Notes: generated by a model from the letters alone, not told the origin. Positions 16,632 to 23,907 are shown, numbered from the stretch's first letter. The stretch: 64,000 bases of DNA from an uncultured Enterobacteriaceae bacterium (GCA_964523765.1 CAZFZX010000001.1:28332-92331); one strand, 5' to 3'. Numbers and translations: made by a program.

Positions 16632-17102
16632 TGTGCGACGGTGAGTTAACGGCTAAAGCCAAATGAATCAGTTCGGAGTATATCGTTCGGTCCGCACGCA
16701 TCACAACAAATCCCCAACGATGGTTCACGCCCACGATTCCTCTGAAAATCCGCCCACTTTTCGGGCCGGTCGTCAGGCCGCCTGCGCGATTGATCGGGCC
16801 GCGCGGAGATTTTGTGCCTGAGGCCCGCGCAGCGCGTCTTTCTCAGGTCGAAAGCTAGCGCCTCAGTTCGAGAGATAACCAAGGATGGGTCGTGCCAATC
16901 GCGAGCGGGACCGGCACCGTCGGAAAATGGCAGACGATTTTTGCCGCATTCTCAGTCGCAACCCGTCGCGGAGGCCGCTAAACAGGCCAGAGATTAATTG
17001 CAACCTCCTGATCCAGCTCAAATAATCGGTGCGCTCCGGTACTGCATCGCGAGCGCATAGTAGCTAGACTACTTACCTGCCGAAGAACGTTGGGACCGGC
17101 CC

Positions 17103-18647
17103 TTGCGTCAGATTGCTCATTTATTGCTCGACGAATCTCTCCAGTTAGGTGACGCCTGCGCAATGGCCCGCTCTTCGCTCGATGCGCGGACTGAAATCGC
17201 CCTAACCGGCAACCGGTACTATCTGGATACGCCGGATCGACACCTACTGCATCAAAACCAGGTATTCGAATGCGATGTCGAGAACGGGGAGGTCGTGCTG
17301 GCGCTACGTTGCGCAGAGAAGCTGCTCGCGGGCCCGGTCCGGCAACGAACGATGCCCGCTTCCACAGTCGAAGTCGTCGATTTCGACCTGCGGCGAAGGC
17401 TGAACGGTGACGCTAACTCGACGGCACTGATCGTCGCCGACAATCGACCCGTTCGGTATGAGCTGATGCGCGTTCGAAATGAGCACGGCAAAACGATTGC
17501 GTGGCTTTATCTGGAACAATTCGATCCGGGTTTAAGCGGCGAGCATCGCCCACCGGTCGCGGTACGGATCGTGGCCTTTCGCGGTTACTTCAAGGAGTCC
17601 CGTAAAGCGGTGCACATTTTGCGCGCGAAACTGCCGGATTATGTTTTGCCGACCGAGGGCATAGTAGCGGGGCCGGACCGCGCCTTTGCGTTATTACCTG
17701 AACCGCTGGCCGTTCAAAAATCGCGGCTTTCGCGCAATATATCGATAGCCGATGGCGTCACCGCGATCCTGACCGACAACTTCCGTGTGATGGTGACCAG
17801 AGAACAGGGGATCGAAGCCGACCTTGATATCGAGTTTCTGCACGACTTTCGCATTGCGCTACGACGGATCCGGTCAATTTTCGGTGCGTTTGGCGCGGTT
17901 TTTGCCGCGGAGATCGGTCCACTTTTGAAACCAAACCTACGTTGGCTGAATCGCCTAACAGGAACTCGTCGTGATCTCGATGTCTATCTCGACCACTTTC
18001 CGGAAATAGTCCATTCCGCCTCCCCGGCGAACCGTACCCCACTGCAGCAAATATGCGAATTTGTCGCTACCGAACGCCGACTAGAACAAGACAGACTCGT
18101 TAAAGCACTGAACAGCGATCGGTACGCGAAGTTCAAGCGAGACTGGTCTCGTTTCTTGAGCGCGCCGACCATCGCTCCGGCCGCTGCGAATAGAGGGATA
18201 ATGAAATCGTCTGGTGCTTCCATTTGGAAAACCTATAAGCGGATCCGGAAGCAGATTTGCTCTCCGGATATAACGCACGAGATCGACGAGCTGCATACGT
18301 TGAGAAAGGACTGCAAGAAACTGCGTTACCAGGTCGAAGCTTTCGCGCCAATTTATCCGAAAACGCCGCTGACCAATGCGGTGGGCGAACTGAAGCACCT
18401 CCAAGATATACTCGGCGCAGTCTGCGATAATTCGGTACAGCAGCGATTTCTGCTCCGGCGCCAGAGCCACATTCTCCAACGCGTCCGTGATGCGGAGCGG
18501 TTCGAAAAATTGCTGGACGGAGTGCTCGAAGACTATGCTGCTAGGGAACGCCGAATGCTGCGCACAATCCGCAAGAACCTAGACCGTTTCGCGAGTAAAA
18601 AGGTCACGGAAACTTACCGAAAACTGTTCGAGTTTCGAACTCGATGA
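17103..18647 (+). CDS. YgiF-like protein with degenerate CYTH (triphosphate tunnel) N-domain and C-terminal CHAD domain
   Basis: NRYYLDTPD matches the CYTH YYETPD motif of YgiF. C-terminal half carries CHAD signatures (HDFRIALRRIRS..., LRKDCKKLRYQVEAF..., LKHLQDILG). The N-terminal ExExK motif is degenerate (TEIALTG). Confidence 0.7.
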   Translation: MRQIAHLLLDESLQLGDACAMARSSLDARTEIALTGNRYYLDTPDRHLLHQNQVFECDVENGEVVLALRCAEKLLAGPVRQRTMPASTVEVVDFDLRRRLNGDANSTALIVADNRPVRYELMRVRNEHGKTIAWLYLEQFDPGLSGEHRPPVAVRIVAFRGYFKESRKAVHILRAKLPDYVLPTEGIVAGPDRAFALLPEPLAVQKSRLSRNISIADGVTAILTDNFRVMVTREQGIEADLDIEFLHDFRIALRRIRSIFGAFGAVFAAEIGPLLKPNLRWLNRLTGTRRDLDVYLDHFPEIVHSASPANRTPLQQICEFVATERRLEQDRLVKALNSDRYAKFKRDWSRFLSAPTIAPAAANRGIMKSSGASIWKTYKRIRKQICSPDITHEIDELHTLRKDCKKLRYQVEAFAPIYPKTPLTNAVGELKHLQDILGAVCDNSVQQRFLLRRQSHILQRVRDAERFEKLLDGVLEDYAARERRMLRTIRKNLDRFASKKVTETYRKLFEFRTR

Positions 18648-19423
18648 AGATATTCGCGACGTATAACATTAAAGGGGGCGTAGGCAAGACTGCGGCGGCG
18701 GTAAATCTCTCCTATCTCTCCGGGCAAAGCGGGTTCAGGACGCTGGTTTGGGACCTCGATGCTCAAGGCGCCGCCACTTTTTACTTTCGGGTTCGACCTC
18801 ATCTGAAGGGCGGCGGCGAACGCCTGATTCGGCGCAAGCGTAACCTGCCGAAAGCTATCCGGGCGACTGACTACCATAACCTCGACTTGATACCCTCGGA
18901 TTTCTCGTTACGCAACCTCGATCTGAAACTCGCAGGCACTAAAGCCCCCGAGGATCGTTTGGACAAGCTCCTAGGCGGCGTCAAGGATGATTATGACATC
19001 GCTATGCTGGACTGTGCGCCTTCGATCTCGTTGGTCTCCGAAAACGTCATCCACATGGCGGATTGGCTGTTGATCCCCTTGATACCGACACAATTGTCGC
19101 TGCGCGCATATGGCCAATTGCGGGAATTCTTTGTATCCGAGGGGCACAATACCGAACGTCTAATGCCGTTTTTCTCGATGGTCGACAAAAGAAGGCGTCT
19201 ACATAAGACGCTTATCGTCGAATTCGCGGCACAACATCCGGAGTTGCTGCAAACCTATATCCCTTACTTGAGCCAGATCGAACAAATGGGCGTGCACCGC
19301 GCCCCGGTGGGAGTTTTCGCCGGCAAGGGAGCCGGCGGCAGGGCATTCGCAGGTTTGTGGCAGACCATAATGAACCGGACGAATCTCGCGCCCGAACCCG
19401 TGGTTTCGGCGCCCCATGAGTGA
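18644..19423 (+). CDS. ParA/MinD-family deviant Walker-A ATPase (orphan, no ParB)
   Basis: KGGVGKT deviant Walker A with signature Lys, DLDAQG and DCAPS motifs. Its start overlaps the CHAD gene stop (ATGA) and its end overlaps the queG start by 8 bp. Confidence 0.85.
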   Translation: MKIFATYNIKGGVGKTAAAVNLSYLSGQSGFRTLVWDLDAQGAATFYFRVRPHLKGGGERLIRRKRNLPKAIRATDYHNLDLIPSDFSLRNLDLKLAGTKAPEDRLDKLLGGVKDDYDIAMLDCAPSISLVSENVIHMADWLLIPLIPTQLSLRAYGQLREFFVSEGHNTERLMPFFSMVDKRRRLHKTLIVEFAAQHPELLQTYIPYLSQIEQMGVHRAPVGVFAGKGAGGRAFAGLWQTIMNRTNLAPEPVVSAPHE

Positions 19424-20522
19424 AACTCGGCAGCATCACCCCGAACTACATCGACCCGAAGAATTAGTCGCGAAAATTCGCTGCTGGGGGCGCGAGCTGG
19501 GTTTTCAGCGGGTCGGGATCGCCGGTATCGAATTGGAGGAGGACGGGCGGCGTCTACAGCGATGGTTGTCACGGGGGCGACACGGCGAAATGGCGTACAT
19601 GATTAAGCATGGGACCAAACGCTCCCGGCCGGGCGAACTGATACCGGGGACGGTATCGGTAATCTCCGCGAGAATGAATTACCTTACTGATACCGTCGCC
19701 GAGGCCGAGAAAATCCTCCAAGATCCATGTACTGCTTATATATCGCGCTACGCGTTGGGACGCGATTATCATAAGTTGATGCGGGCACGGCTACAGAAGC
19801 TGGCGCAGAAAATCAGTGCCGATATCGGTGCTTTCGGCTACCGCGTGTTTTCCGACAGCGCGCCGGTATTGGAACGCGGTCTTGCGCGCGAGGCCGGTCT
19901 CGGCTGGATCGGGAAACACGGCAATCTTATCAGCCGAAATGACGGGTCGTGGTTTTTCCTCAGTGAAATCTATACCGATCTGCCCTTACCGCCCGACCGC
20001 GCGTTCGACGGTAACCATTGTGGTAGCTGTACCGCGTGCCTGGACATCTGCCCGACGCAGGCCATTGTCGCTCCCTATGAAGTGGATGCACGACGCTGTA
20101 TTTCGTATCTAACGATCGAATACCGTGGTGCCATACCGGTTGAATACCGGCCGCTTATCGGGAATCGAATTTTCGGCTGTGACGACTGTCAGATCGTTTG
20201 CCCTTGGAATCGCTTCGCCAAGATAAGCTCCGAGACGGATTTCGCGCCGCGATCCGGGCTCGACTCGAGTGCGCTCCTCGATCTATTTGCGTGGACCGAA
20301 GCGGAGTTTCGCAAACGTACGGAAGGATCGGCTATCCGGCGGATCACCTATCGGCAATGGCAGCGTAATCTCGCTATATCGCTCGGCAATGCGCCCGCGT
20401 CGACGACTGTTCGCAATACCTTGGGAAAAGCTTCAGTCGCCGCGACGCCCTTGGTCGCGGAACATATTCAATGGGCACTTCGGCGACAGTCAGAAAAACT
20501 CGAAACCCATGAAGAAACGTAG
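19416..20522 (+). CDS. queG: epoxyqueuosine reductase QueG (4Fe-4S, cobalamin-dependent)
   Basis: CGSCTACLDICPT and CDDCQIVCPWN ferredoxin-like cysteine motifs; overall similarity to QueG/YjeS; 368 aa. Confidence 0.9.
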   Translation: MSETRQHHPELHRPEELVAKIRCWGRELGFQRVGIAGIELEEDGRRLQRWLSRGRHGEMAYMIKHGTKRSRPGELIPGTVSVISARMNYLTDTVAEAEKILQDPCTAYISRYALGRDYHKLMRARLQKLAQKISADIGAFGYRVFSDSAPVLERGLAREAGLGWIGKHGNLISRNDGSWFFLSEIYTDLPLPPDRAFDGNHCGSCTACLDICPTQAIVAPYEVDARRCISYLTIEYRGAIPVEYRPLIGNRIFGCDDCQIVCPWNRFAKISSETDFAPRSGLDSSALLDLFAWTEAEFRKRTEGSAIRRITYRQWQRNLAISLGNAPASTTVRNTLGKASVAATPLVAEHIQWALRRQSEKLETHEET

Positions 20523-20631: not shown

Positions 20632-21354
20632 CTATCGAATACCCGTTTCGATGTGTTTTCGTAATTCCGGGCTTCGACCGACCGCCGGTCGCGCGTTCGT
20701 TACCTCATTGTCGCCGGTGAGCCAGGCCAGCAAAGGCTCCCAGGATTCCAGATCCACTTTTGCACGATGCCGGGGCAATTCGAATATCCCCTGCCCCAAT
20801 CCCGCGGCGTGCACGTAGGCCTGCGCGTCGCGCAAACTTGTTATGAACGGAATTTCGAGAGCTTTTAGAAAACGCAATAATGCTTGATATACACGAGTAT
20901 TCTTTTTGACGCGATTCGCGACCACACCGATGCGCCCATCCCGCGGTTTGATTTTCGCGCACAAGAGCAAGTCGCCGATGCAACGTGACGCCGCGTGGAT
21001 GTCGATTTCGGAGGGCAGTACCGGAATCACTACCGCGTGCGCATCACGGGTTATCTCTTGTAGGTCCTCCCGGGTAGCGCCCGCGGGCGTGTCGATAACA
21101 ATGTTGGTCGCGCCCCGCGTTGCATGGAGTTGCCAAGTGCGCGTCATTCTGGAGTTACGTTCGAAGGCCTTTACTAGCGCAATCGACGGCCGCTCCGGCG
21201 GCCGCGCGGCCACCCAGCGAGCGCTGGACGCCTGGCGATCGTAATCCATGAGGGCGACCCGGTTGCCGGCAATCGCGTAGTACGCCGCAACGTTCGTTGC
21301 AATAGTCGTTTTGCCCGATCCTCCTTTGGGATTCAATACTACGATCTTCTGCAT
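20632..21354 (-). CDS. second ParA-family ATPase (orphan; divergent DYDRQ motif)
   Basis: MQKIVVLNPKGGSGKTT deviant Walker A at the N-terminus, so the start was chosen at the internal Met (21354). The track ORF extends to 21411 with 19 extra residues and no SD. Convergent with queG and divergent from the fusion gene. Confidence 0.75.
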   Translation of the reverse strand: MQKIVVLNPKGGSGKTTIATNVAAYYAIAGNRVALMDYDRQASSARWVAARPPERPSIALVKAFERNSRMTRTWQLHATRGATNIVIDTPAGATREDLQEITRDAHAVVIPVLPSEIDIHAASRCIGDLLLCAKIKPRDGRIGVVANRVKKNTRVYQALLRFLKALEIPFITSLRDAQAYVHAAGLGQGIFELPRHRAKVDLESWEPLLAWLTGDNEVTNARPAVGRSPELRKHIETGIR

Positions 21355-21585
21355 GAGTTTAGGGGCCGTCTGGGTTGGGATCGGGGCTATCGCGTTACCC
21401 AAATTCTTCAATTACTGTTATCGTTCGGCGTAACTTTAACGCCGTTAGTCGGCCGCGAACAAGCCGTTACGTCGGTAATCATAGGTAATACGTCACAGCA
21501 CTGCGATGAGATTAGCGCTGCATCATTGCGAGGCAGAGGCGGCCAATGAACCTTTGTGGTCGATGGTTCGTCCGGAGATCGTCGT

Positions 21586-23907
21586 ATGGACGACACGTTT
21601 GATCTAAATCCGCAAACTTATGACTGGTGCGTCCGGGCGTTCGATCGCGTCAAGAAACTGCTTGGCGTGCGTATCAAGCTACACCATGAGCTAGGGCAAA
21701 TCGAACAAGGTGACGTGTTTCTGTTCAACCACTTCGCGCGGATGGAAACGTTTATTCCGCAATACTTGATCTACCAAGAAACCGGTTCTTTTTGCCGTTC
21801 GATCGCGGCTGGCGAATTCTTTAAGGGTAGCGATAGGTTTACTCAAGTCCTATATGATCTCGGCGCTGTACCCAGCGACCACCCCGACCTTATGCCCATG
21901 CTCGCGCGGGATGTTCTCAAGGGTCGAAAAATTGTGATCTTTCCCGAAGGCGGCATGGTGAAGGATCGCCAGGTTTTGGACGAGCAGGGCAAATACAGCA
22001 TCTACTCCCGGGCCAGCCGCGCCCGCCGGAAACATCATACGGGCGCGGCGCGGCTCGCGATTGGGTTGCAAATCATTAAGTTGCGGGTGCTCGACGAGCA
22101 TCGCCGCGGGAATCGGGAACTGCTTCGGTCATGGGCCGAGGCCCTGCACCTCCCGTCTCCGCAGGCGCTGCTTGAAAACGCGCGACGACCTGTGACTATC
22201 GTGCCGGCAAATATCACGTTTTATCCTCTGCGGATCAGTGACAATATTCTACGCCGAAGCGCGGAGCTCCTGCATGGGAGCCTCAGCCAGCGGGCGGTCG
22301 AAGAACTCATCGTCGAAGGCAATCTTTTTTTTAAAACGACCGACATGGACATCAGGCTCGGCGACGTCATCTGTCCGCTGGAATCCTGGGCGTGGTGGGA
22401 ACGAATGCTGGCCGATTATCTGGGGCGCAGCTTGAACGCCCCATCCGACATATTCGACGGCGACTACTTACGCGCGGAGATGGTCCGGCGTACCGCTGTA
22501 AAAGGGTTGCGAGCAAGTATCAGCCGCCTCCGCAACCGTTATATGCGCGACATCTACGATGAGATTACGGTAAACACGAGCCATCTCGCATCGAAGGCGA
22601 TCTTGAAAATGCTGGAAAGCGACAACGAAGGATTTTCGTTGGAAGAATTCAAGCACGTCATTTATCTGGCTATAAAGAAATTGCAAAGACACCGCGACGT
22701 CCATCTCCACCGAAGCATCTGCAACCCGACGGTTTATCGTGAACTGCTGAAGACCGAAACGCCGGAAATGACCCAGTTTCTCGAATCCGCAGTAAATGCA
22801 CAGTTGATCGAGCTGAAATCTACTGAAATTGTCTTCCTGGATAAACTCGCGGCCGACCACGAGTTCGATTCGGTGCGTTTGGAGAATCCGATCGAAGTCT
22901 ACGGCAATGAAGTTGAACCAATCCAGGAAGTAGATGCCGCGCTCGAAGCTGCTATAACCGAAGTCGGCTCGCTTACGCCGCGCGGTTACGCAAAGTTGAT
23001 CTACGACGACGAATTGATCGCGTTGGAGTGGGACAGAAATTTCTTTGACAAACCCGCTCATCAGGAGATTAACCGCCGAGAAACGGCAACCGCGGACGCC
23101 AGCCCCTTCTTACTGGAACCGGACCAGGGTTCGGAGGTGGGCGTATTGCTTGTGCACGGCTTTCTGGCGTCGCCAGCAGAAGTACGGAGCCTAGGGGACA
23201 AACTGCTCGGCGCCGGAATCACGGTTCTCGGCGTGCGGCTCAAGGGCCACGGTACGTCGCCTTGGGACCTAAGGGAGCGGAGCTGGCACGATTGGTTCGC
23301 CTCGGTAGAACACGGTTTGGAAATAATCGGGAGTCTGTGTGAACGTGTTTGCGTTGTGGGTTTCTCCACCGGCGGCGCGCTGGGCTTATTACTTTCCGCG
23401 CGCCGGACCGAACGGGTAGAGGCGGTCGCCTCGATATGCGCACCAATCAAATTCCGCAACAGAAATATGAGATTCGTCCCCTTGATGCACGGAGCCAATC
23501 GCGTCGTACGCTGGGTCTCGAAGTATGAAGGTTTGATGCCTTTTCGTCTCAACGAATCAGAGCACCCACACATTAACTATCGCAATATGCCCATCCGTAG
23601 CCTCTACGAATTAACGCGGCTGGTCGCACATCTAAAGGAAGAATTAGGCGCGGTTACCTGTCCCGTATGCATCGTCCAGTCCGCTGAGGACCGTGTCGTC
23701 GACCCGCACAGCGCAACGATTGCCTACGACCTCCTCCAAACCCAAGACAAGGAGATCCACTGGATCGAATCTGAGCGTCACGGGATCCTTAACGAGGATA
23801 TCGGCGGAACACACACGGTCTTACTCGATTTCGTCGAGCGAGTTGCCGCTCGGCACGTTCGGCGACACATCGACTCAAACGAGCCGACCGCCGGCAGCTA
23901 CGCCTAA
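21586..23907 (+). CDS. two-domain fusion: PlsC-like acyltransferase (HX4E + FPEGG motifs) N-terminus and YvaK/Est-type carboxylesterase (alpha/beta hydrolase) C-terminus
   Basis: N-terminus has LFNHFARME and IVIFPEGGMVKD (LPLAT motifs I/III). C-terminus has LVHGFLASP, KGHG, the GFSTGG nucleophile elbow, AEDRVVD and ERHG (Ser-Asp-His triad). GGAGA SD lies 8 nt before the ATG at 21586; a GTG at 21556 is also possible. Confidence 0.7.
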   Translation: MDDTFDLNPQTYDWCVRAFDRVKKLLGVRIKLHHELGQIEQGDVFLFNHFARMETFIPQYLIYQETGSFCRSIAAGEFFKGSDRFTQVLYDLGAVPSDHPDLMPMLARDVLKGRKIVIFPEGGMVKDRQVLDEQGKYSIYSRASRARRKHHTGAARLAIGLQIIKLRVLDEHRRGNRELLRSWAEALHLPSPQALLENARRPVTIVPANITFYPLRISDNILRRSAELLHGSLSQRAVEELIVEGNLFFKTTDMDIRLGDVICPLESWAWWERMLADYLGRSLNAPSDIFDGDYLRAEMVRRTAVKGLRASISRLRNRYMRDIYDEITVNTSHLASKAILKMLESDNEGFSLEEFKHVIYLAIKKLQRHRDVHLHRSICNPTVYRELLKTETPEMTQFLESAVNAQLIELKSTEIVFLDKLAADHEFDSVRLENPIEVYGNEVEPIQEVDAALEAAITEVGSLTPRGYAKLIYDDELIALEWDRNFFDKPAHQEINRRETATADASPFLLEPDQGSEVGVLLVHGFLASPAEVRSLGDKLLGAGITVLGVRLKGHGTSPWDLRERSWHDWFASVEHGLEIIGSLCERVCVVGFSTGGALGLLLSARRTERVEAVASICAPIKFRNRNMRFVPLMHGANRVVRWVSKYEGLMPFRLNESEHPHINYRNMPIRSLYELTRLVAHLKEELGAVTCPVCIVQSAEDRVVDPHSATIAYDLLQTQDKEIHWIESERHGILNEDIGGTHTVLLDFVERVAARHVRRHIDSNEPTAGSYA

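Follow-up and report, generated by a model that had tools for sequence, protein, structure and literature searches.

A conserved CHAD and ParA-like gene pair as a candidate ParA-type system for positioning polyphosphate granules

Outside AlgP in Pseudomonas, the mechanism by which polyphosphate (polyP) granules are placed and inherited has been called undefined (PMC11894788, 2025; PMC13556221, 2026 mBio), and a ParA/MinD laboratory has noted ParA-like granule spacing for which no ParA is known (PMC13556221). Could a pair of overlapping genes on the chromosome of an uncultured gammaproteobacterium encode such a system? The pair lies in a stretch of 64,000 nucleotides (GCA_964523765.1 CAZFZX010000001.1:28332-92331), referred to here as the window, and consists of a gene for a protein with a CHAD domain followed by a gene for a ParA-like ATPase, with queG directly downstream. 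An initial annotation had grouped the three genes as one operon and suggested a module for positioning or segregating polyP granules. The features concerned, with the evidence for each, are these.

17103..18647, + strand: CHAD gene, encoding a two-domain protein of 514 amino acids (open reading frame, Pfam CHAD, AlphaFold, Foldseek, PDB profile search)
17103..17642, + strand: predicted degenerate CYTH/TTM-fold domain without ExExK (AlphaFold, Foldseek, column conservation)
17715..18632, + strand: long CHAD domain (ungapped HMMER alignment to 6qv7/3e0s, CtCHAD construct numbering and mutant data; PMC6537752)
18644..19423, + strand: ParA/MinD-family ATPase of 259 amino acids (open reading frame, junction, Pfam AAA_31, invariant columns, nearest structures)
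19416..20522, + strand: queG, tRNA epoxyqueuosine reductase, 368 amino acids (NCBIfam equivalog TIGR00276)

That the three genes overlap was confirmed from their open reading frames on the + strand (17103-18647, 18644-19423 and 19416-20522), and overlaps of 4 and 8 base pairs (bp) can be read directly from the sequence. Positions 18644-18647 read CGATGAAG, where the stop of the CHAD gene and the start of the ParA-like gene share 4 bp (ATGA), and positions 19416-19423 read CATGAGTGAAAC, where the end of the ParA-like gene and the start of queG share 8 bp, ATGAGTGA. No terminator-like site of note was found between the three genes. The CHAD gene starts with TTG, and this start is supported: the first alignment column is M in 59 of 61 homologues, strand β1 of the protein is modelled from residue 2 with a predicted local distance difference test score (pLDDT) of 87, and gene callers also give 514 amino acids in further assemblies of this organism.

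Conservation of the CHAD/ParA-like pair was assessed in both directions. In the forward test, a genome scan that took the ATPase as seed yielded over 595 relatives, of which the best 80 (48-62% identity) were used; with four look-up loci and the window itself these made up a set of 85 loci. In 73 of the 85, 67 of them with a full-length hit, a CHAD-family hidden Markov model found its gene immediately upstream and in the same orientation, and when three truncated contigs (L011, L041, L053) are excluded the adjacency among informative loci is 73/82, or 89%. The pair-bearing taxa include Sedimenticolaceae, Methylococcales and Chromatiaceae within the Gammaproteobacteria, about 27 Actinomycetota, Thalassobaculum (two loci; Alphaproteobacteria) and Trichloromonas (Desulfuromonadota), to which the look-ups add Electrothrix and one metagenome-assembled genome (MAG) of the Acidobacteriota. 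Cultured organisms that carry it are Methylotuvimicrobium buryatense 5G, Methylomonas lenta, Sedimenticola selenatireducens and Thalassobaculum litoreum. The reverse test was a metagenome scan seeded by the CHAD protein alone, which gave 80 loci, 62 of them with at least 800 bp downstream. The ATPase gene lies directly downstream on the same strand in 55 of these 62, and its 5' end is seen in 11 of the 18 truncated loci; at one CHAD locus, PPK1 stands where the ATPase would be. Co-occurrence beyond the window's lineage had been set beforehand as the point on which the proposal could fall, and it was found in both directions of search, with 89% adjacency and in several phyla. The genomic basis of the pair is much stronger than the initial annotation could know.

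The junction itself is also conserved. Across 65 non-redundant pairs the two genes lie within 86 bp of each other in 64, with a 1-bp overlap in 4 and a 4-bp overlap in 42, and because the 4-bp overlap recurs in so many pairs from other genomes, that between the CHAD and ParA-like genes cannot be put down to chance. Pairwise identities of the two proteins also vary together (r = 0.87, Mantel p = 0.001), a correlation to which shared phylogeny contributes. The CHAD protein is the faster-evolving partner, with a mean identity of 35% against 57% for the ATPase, and its family numbers about 9,700 clusters at 50% identity (E <= 1e-30), a count that may include other CHAD subfamilies. No ParA-CHAD fusion of the Rosetta-stone kind was seen; extended family members bear CYTH or helix-hairpin-helix (HhH) domains instead. 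In one Actinomycetota MAG (L052 3425-5004) the CHAD gene is in three frame-shifted pieces, through decay into a pseudogene or through an error in assembling long reads.

The third gene does not belong to this conserved module. It is a bona fide queG, as first annotated, with the Pfam domains QueG_DUF1730 and Fer4_16 (double 4Fe-4S) and a score of 474.6 bits against the NCBIfam equivalog TIGR00276 (cut-off 200). As a functional unit, however, the three-gene operon was not sustained: queG follows the ATPase in 15 of the 85 loci, all from the window's own gammaproteobacterial lineage, which shares dapA-to-rpe synteny. queG is a lineage-specific neighbour and is co-transcribed here by local synteny only. 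The first three neighbourhoods had suggested ParA-queG as the conserved unit with CHAD as an accessory, a view overturned by the 80-locus scan. Five close relatives (L001, L002, L006, L010, L017) have an ATPase 53-77% identical to that of the window, and in them the CHAD gene has been cleanly lost from the same syntenic slot (compare window 16632-19423).

The product of the second gene is a ParA/MinD ATPase, intact and assignable to no curated family. Its deviant Walker A motif (N8-I-K10-G-G-V-G-K15-T16) includes the signature lysine K10; in 29 homologues K10, G11, V13, G14, K15 and T16 are invariant, as are the Walker A'/B aspartates D37, D39 and D123, and G12 is conserved in at least 90%. 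Pfam assigns AAA_31 (E 2e-33, 116 bits) and CbiA (44 bits), each passing its cut-off; the match to the NUBPL iron-transfer NTPase family, which Pfam calls 'ParA', scores 18 bits, below cut-off. None of the NCBIfam models reaches its cut-off for the ATPase, ParA_partition giving 63.6 bits against 180. The nearest solved structures are 8ray_B, a 'ParA family protein' (E 7e-31), and Soj (1wcv and 6iub, about 1e-22), with the McdA structures 6non and 6noo farther away than Soj (profile E about 6e-12). Some source annotations label homologues of the ATPase 'BcsQ'. Its description as an orphan was upheld, in that the genes called up to 10 kb to either side of it, in three assemblies of this organism, include no ParB-family domain, parS not having been searched for. 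The homologues share an FSMVD-R motif in which R183 is invariant, and this residue aligns with R189 of Bacillus subtilis Soj, a DNA-binding arginine; the ATPase may bind DNA in the same way. No amphipathic C-terminal helix was obvious in the ATPase on inspection, a formal analysis not having been made.

For the CHAD protein, an AlphaFold model built from an alignment of 64 homologues (pLDDT 89.3) consists of a β-rich domain (residues 1-180), a disordered, low-confidence linker (184-203) and an all-helical domain (205-510). The helical half carries the CHAD domain, with Pfam CHAD (PF05235) matching residues 221-450 (E 1e-51, 176.5 bits against a cut-off of 25.6) and a PDB profile match to CtCHAD, from Chlorobium tepidum, at E 9e-101 over profile positions 203-515. 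Foldseek aligned this half to CtCHAD structures with and without polyP at TM scores of 0.88-0.90, with 6qv7 at 0.88. This is the long, pore-containing Chlorobium type of CHAD domain, with a fold of two four-helix bundles, and the term 'YgiF-like' used initially has to be dropped, similarity to the sequence of YgiF being undetectable. The closest solved relative, Q8KE09 (CtCHAD; PDB 6qv7, 6qva, 3e0s), matches over about 310 residues and has the same length (about 522 amino acids) and layout as the window protein, with an identity of just 28-30%. The CtCHAD crystal corresponds to residues 208-522 of Q8KE09 (PMC6537752) and is therefore derived from a protein sized and laid out like that of the window. 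The widely cited 'stand-alone' CtCHAD crystal is in this sense a fragment, and the N-terminal 207 residues of Q8KE09 have apparently never been characterised; for the corresponding region of the window homologue, a degenerate TTM domain is predicted.

Seven of the eight mutationally validated polyP-binding residues of CtCHAD are kept in the window protein, which bears out the initial assignment of CHAD as a polyP-binding module. Residues were mapped through the ungapped HMMER alignment to 6qv7/3e0s together with the construct numbering (208-522) and mutant data (PMC6537752): H247, R250, R254, R290, R408, Y409 and K431 correspond to CtCHAD H253, R256, R260, R296, R418, Y419 and K441, mutation of which weakens polyP binding (PMC6537752), and the exception is CtCHAD R438, which is G428 in the window protein. 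Most of these positions are invariant columns in family alignment A2. CHAD proteins decorate polyP granules in vivo (PMC6537752 and work cited therein), and CHAD domains bind polyP and not nucleic acids (PMC6537752). Judged by its conserved residues, the window CHAD protein would bind polyP, and it may localise to the granules.

What, then, is the N-terminal half? AlphaFold and Foldseek together give it the eight-stranded β-barrel tunnel fold, with pLDDT mostly above 85. At probability 1.0 and TM about 0.5-0.57, Foldseek matched the N-domain to thiamine triphosphatase, class IV (CyaB-type) adenylate cyclases and archaeal SaTTM; the matches at this probability were 3bhd, 5a64, 3n10, 2fjt, 7ns9 and 5a60, and over the whole chain the YgiF structure 5a60 aligned with E 2e-9 across 477 columns. 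In contrast, a CYTH domain in the 514-residue protein was missed by Pfam, NCBIfam, PDB phmmer and the PDB profile search, hhalign detected no similarity to Escherichia coli YgiF, and Pfam CYTH matched 1 of 64 family members (E 0.002) and not the window protein. Because Foldseek succeeded where the sequence methods failed, the CYTH-CHAD architecture of the initial annotation is correct at the level of the modelled fold only. That annotation had also placed a degenerate ExExK motif at TEIALTG. The motif is indeed absent, though the location was wrong, as TEIALTG (residues 30-36) lies within modelled strand β2 and the true position is in β1 (residues 2-9, RQIAHLLL), where the columns are non-acidic and variable across the family. 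Conserved in the N-domain are D42, T43, D45, L48, P85, R97, L109, K130, G161 and Y162. From the missing ExExK motif and the near absence of Pfam CYTH matches we infer a domain that probably lacks catalysis and is not an enzyme. Canonical CYTH domains are found alongside the module in relatives: P0364 (L176 53-2275) has one, detectable by Pfam, fused ahead of the whole TTM-CHAD module, and at L175 a separate canonical CYTH gene lies upstream on the opposite strand, near the extended member P0375. The degenerate N-domain is therefore no stand-in for an active CYTH. The linker at 184-203 is the sole disordered stretch of the protein, and in the wider family it carries a semi-conserved AL.AAGR.PGDYSSK. 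P0375 (L175 714-2765) has an HHH_5 HhH DNA-binding motif fused ahead of its TTM-CHAD module, and in both N-terminally extended members, P0375 and P0364, a ParA-like gene comes next with a 4-bp overlap.

Genes of polyP metabolism recur beside the pair. Flanking open reading frames of the genome loci and of the 80 metagenome loci were clustered, and cluster representatives were annotated; clusters 2 and 18 were discarded as spurious antisense 'families' produced by greedy longest-frame calling in high-GC Actinomycetota. Three neighbours stood out.

PPK1 beside the pair: 5 genome loci (L015, L023, L025, L031, L057) and 13/80 metagenome loci, in the latter usually immediately 5' of the CHAD gene
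PstS and/or PstCA beside the pair: 10 genome loci and 6/80 metagenome loci
SixA-like histidine phosphatase beside the pair: 6 genome loci and 17/80 metagenome loci, sometimes overlapping the 3' end of the ATPase gene

These recurrent neighbours define a recurrent order of ppk1, TTM-CHAD, parA-like and sixA-like genes, found against a background in which most pair loci have no ppk1 within 4-5 kb. PPK1 acts via a phospho-histidine intermediate, so a SixA-like phosphatase could regulate polyP synthesis. Examples of the SixA-like gene (Pfam His_Phos_1) are at L125 5957-6466, L131 5846-6439 and L082 2037-2558, and in L125 and L131 it overlaps the ATPase gene.

ParA/MinD ATPases place their cargos via a partner that binds the cargo and is encoded by a neighbouring gene (PMC10241942, PMC11407121). 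We propose that the conserved, translationally coupled pair encodes a ParA-type system for positioning or segregating polyP granules, in which the CHAD protein acts as the cargo adaptor, a reading whose probability we consider evenly balanced. The 514-residue protein would coat polyP granules via its long CHAD domain, while the ATPase, as an ATP-bound dimer, would bind the nucleoid non-specifically. Contact between the granule-bound CHAD protein and the ATPase would stimulate ATP hydrolysis and leave a local depletion zone; granules would then climb the ATPase gradient and repel each other, giving even spacing and equal inheritance, as for McdAB and carboxysomes or ParABS and plasmids. Such a mechanism would be of the Brownian-ratchet type, with the nucleoid as matrix and the CHAD protein as granule adaptor, and the putatively catalysis-free TTM-fold N-domain might serve as the surface that contacts the ATPase or bind polyP ends. 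A broader form of the proposal is put forward tentatively, as possible and a little short of even: the pair would be a widespread, dedicated polyP-granule partition system of ParA type and the first active positioning of an inorganic-polymer condensate, its adaptor would combine a catalytically dead TTM domain with a long CHAD domain and lack the canonical basic N-terminal peptide, and many genomes would carry a ppk1/TTM-CHAD/parA/sixA 'polyP organelle' operon.

Several observations weigh against granule positioning. Besides the truncated contigs, the twelve negatives of the forward test comprise the five queG-lineage relatives (L001, L002, L006, L010, L017), in which an intact ATPase gene abuts or overlaps queG with no adjacent CHAD gene, three Methylococcales loci (L028, L029, L062), in which the ATPase gene stands alone between prfB-lysS and dtd, and a Chromatiaceae MAG (L063). 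Conversely, 7 of the 62 CHAD loci in the reverse test lack the ATPase. Dependence between the partners is therefore not absolute, or the missing partner is encoded elsewhere. In characterised ParA/MinD systems, a positively charged, disordered N-terminus of the partner contacts and stimulates the ATPase (PMC10241942); the 514-residue protein has no such peptide, its chain opening with β1, and columns 2-12 of the family are variable and not basic, with no conserved basic peptide. The experimental basis for the CHAD-protein family is polyP binding by the CtCHAD fragment, and in other bacteria the deletion of CHAD proteins reportedly caused no substantial disruption of granule formation (PMC13556221). 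In the 64-kb window there is no ppk, ppx or pst gene, and no Pho-box-like repeat was found near the operon.

Other explanations account for parts of the same evidence. The pair might instead organise polyP synthesis, with the ATPase acting as a BcsQ/FlhG/MipZ-like factor that recruits or regulates PPK1 or nucleates granules and the CHAD protein as a scaffold. This would suit ppk1 as the most specific recurrent neighbour, often directly 5' of the CHAD gene, the SixA-like phosphohistidine phosphatase that often follows the ATPase and hints at control of a phospho-histidine enzyme, and the 'BcsQ' label given to some homologues; it would leave unexplained why ppk1 is missing within 4-5 kb at most pair loci and from the whole window. 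The invariant arginine, the equivalent of Soj R189, also suits an ATPase that uses the nucleoid as matrix better than an enzyme chaperone, and we regard a role in synthesis as unlikely. A second view takes the CYTH-CHAD protein for a polyP-regulated class IV adenylate cyclase ('ACAci'), triphosphatase or polyphosphatase beside which a parA-like gene for chromosome partition or cell division is merely adjacent (PMC6416229). The predicted CYTH fold agrees with this, as does YgiF, a polyphosphatase with the same domain order whose activity is enhanced by its CHAD domain (PMC6537752), and active-site residues are stated to be conserved in the Acidithiobacillus proteins (PMC6416229). In the present family, however, β1 has no ExExK and 63 of the 64 members have no Pfam CYTH match. 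The family positions matched by eye to the R-x-R strand of YgiF are non-basic, which counts further against an enzyme. A canonical CYTH fused or adjacent in some loci would be redundant were the N-domain active, a pair adjacent at 89% of loci, with 4-bp overlaps and in several phyla, is no incidental arrangement, and the ATPase falls below every curated partition-family cut-off with no ParB called within 10 kb; an enzyme with an incidental neighbour is improbable.

Two further readings fare worse. In one, the pair segregates DNA or organises the nucleoid, with the CHAD protein replacing ParB or polyP bridging to DNA. In its favour, the type nearest to the ATPase is the small chromosomal Soj/ParA one, P0375 has an N-terminal HhH motif, and polyP-DNA-protein condensates have been discussed (PMC11894788). 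Yet the HhH fusion is a single case, the setting is ordinary core chromosome (der, bamC, dapA, rpe, trpGDC), neither near the origin nor plasmid-borne, and CHAD domains bound no nucleic acid (PMC6537752), which makes a DNA module very improbable. In the other, the three genes act jointly and the ATPase and CHAD protein serve queuosine/tRNA modification or the delivery of Fe-S clusters or cobalamin to QueG. The 8-bp overlap in the window, the overlapping or abutting starts in relatives, the retention of ParA-queG even where the CHAD gene was lost and the delivery of Fe-S clusters by some P-loop relatives (Mrp/NBP35) would all be in keeping with it. Set against these, queG follows the ATPase in just 15 of 85 loci from a single synteny-sharing lineage and other genes lie downstream elsewhere, and the match to the NUBPL family ('ParA' in Pfam) is a sub-threshold 18 bits; we consider a role tied to QueG extremely improbable.

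The positioning of polyP granules by the pair would have several points of comparison. It resembles McdA/McdB and other ParA/MinD cargo systems in having a small, ParB-less ATPase gene beside that of a binder of a cytoplasmic, nucleoid-associated, non-DNA cargo, and in the deviant Walker A motif and catalytic Asp, both intact in the window ATPase. It differs in its prospective cargo, a granule of inorganic polymer, in its putative adaptor, which at about 520 amino acids is a folded TTM-CHAD protein without a disordered basic N-terminus, and in its ATPase, which is nearer Soj (E 1e-22 to 7e-31) than McdA. Unlike in ParABS, no ParB is called beside the ATPase. E. coli YgiF, a TTM-CHAD inorganic triphosphatase (5a60), likewise has a TTM fold followed by CHAD, but it is active, has ExExK and has a short, pore-less CHAD domain (PMC6537752); its gene neighbours in E. 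coli are glnE and ygiM, with no ParA gene, and it has no detectable sequence similarity to the window protein. AlgP of Pseudomonas aeruginosa addresses the same problem, the even spacing of nucleoid-associated polyP granules (PMC9239181), but is a histone H1-like DNA-binding protein of unrelated sequence and restricted lineage, with no ATPase system.

The sole published description we found of parA, CYTH-CHAD and ppk1 together is the folD-ppk-parA-CYTH/CHAD cluster conserved in the genus Acidithiobacillus, whose ParA and CYTH-CHAD proteins may belong to the same two subfamilies (PMC6416229, PMC10892726). It was read as a polyP-regulated adenylate cyclase with a ParA for chromosome or plasmid partition, or linked to copper resistance, and these papers propose no granule positioning (PMC6416229, PMC10892726). 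The initial view that the pair is uncharacterised thus stands for its proposed function, though the cluster itself had been drawn. In the open full-text literature, subscription-only papers lying outside the scope of the search, we found no description of a CHAD/phosin-ParA or ParA-like polyP-granule positioning system, and polyP as a cargo is absent from the ParA/MinD ATPase literature searched.

The window belongs to the core chromosome of an uncultured gammaproteobacterium. Upstream of the operon lie der, bamC, dapA, PIN-PhoH and genes for an ACT-domain and an AI-2E-family (perM-like) protein; rpe and trpGDC lie downstream. The promoter scan gave 2 sites against 3.0 expected, with nothing near the operon above chance; the one upstream of the CHAD gene is listed here.

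16998..17026, + strand: sole sigma-70-like promoter match 5' of the CHAD gene; it is weak and does not exceed chance

The 64-kb window contains no sixA and no further CHAD gene, and no further ParA gene except a second orphan ParA-like gene, unlike the ATPase of the pair, at 20632-21411 (- strand), convergent with queG. In other assemblies it is called at 20632-21354 with 240 amino acids. NCBIfam ParA_partition gives it 126.6 bits against a cut-off of 180; homologues of about 232 amino acids are widespread, and the ortholog in L001 is split into two open reading frames. In two distant genomes (L172, L173) its homologues are flanked by FKBP/HU/yggT/proC and PpnN, and no conserved or ParB-like partner was evident at the loci examined. 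Further along, 21556-23907 (+ strand) encodes a protein of 783 amino acids with a C-terminal alpha/beta-hydrolase (Hydrolase_4) and, at its N-terminus, a region resembling acyltransferases (Pfam Acyltransferase 22.6 bits, slightly below cut-off), syntenic in all relatives of the lineage.

The CHAD/ParA-like pair is the first concrete candidate for machinery that spaces polyP granules in bacteria, and the system would represent ParA/MinD positioning in which both the cargo and the adaptor architecture are new. It turns the open question of granule placement into a two-gene candidate that can be tested genetically in cultured organisms. If the proposal is true, the 'adenylate cyclase' annotation of such CYTH-CHAD proteins would be revised, the crystallised CtCHAD protein would have a function assigned to its N-terminal half, so far unexplained, and the ParA/MinD family would gain both a new cargo and a new type of adaptor.

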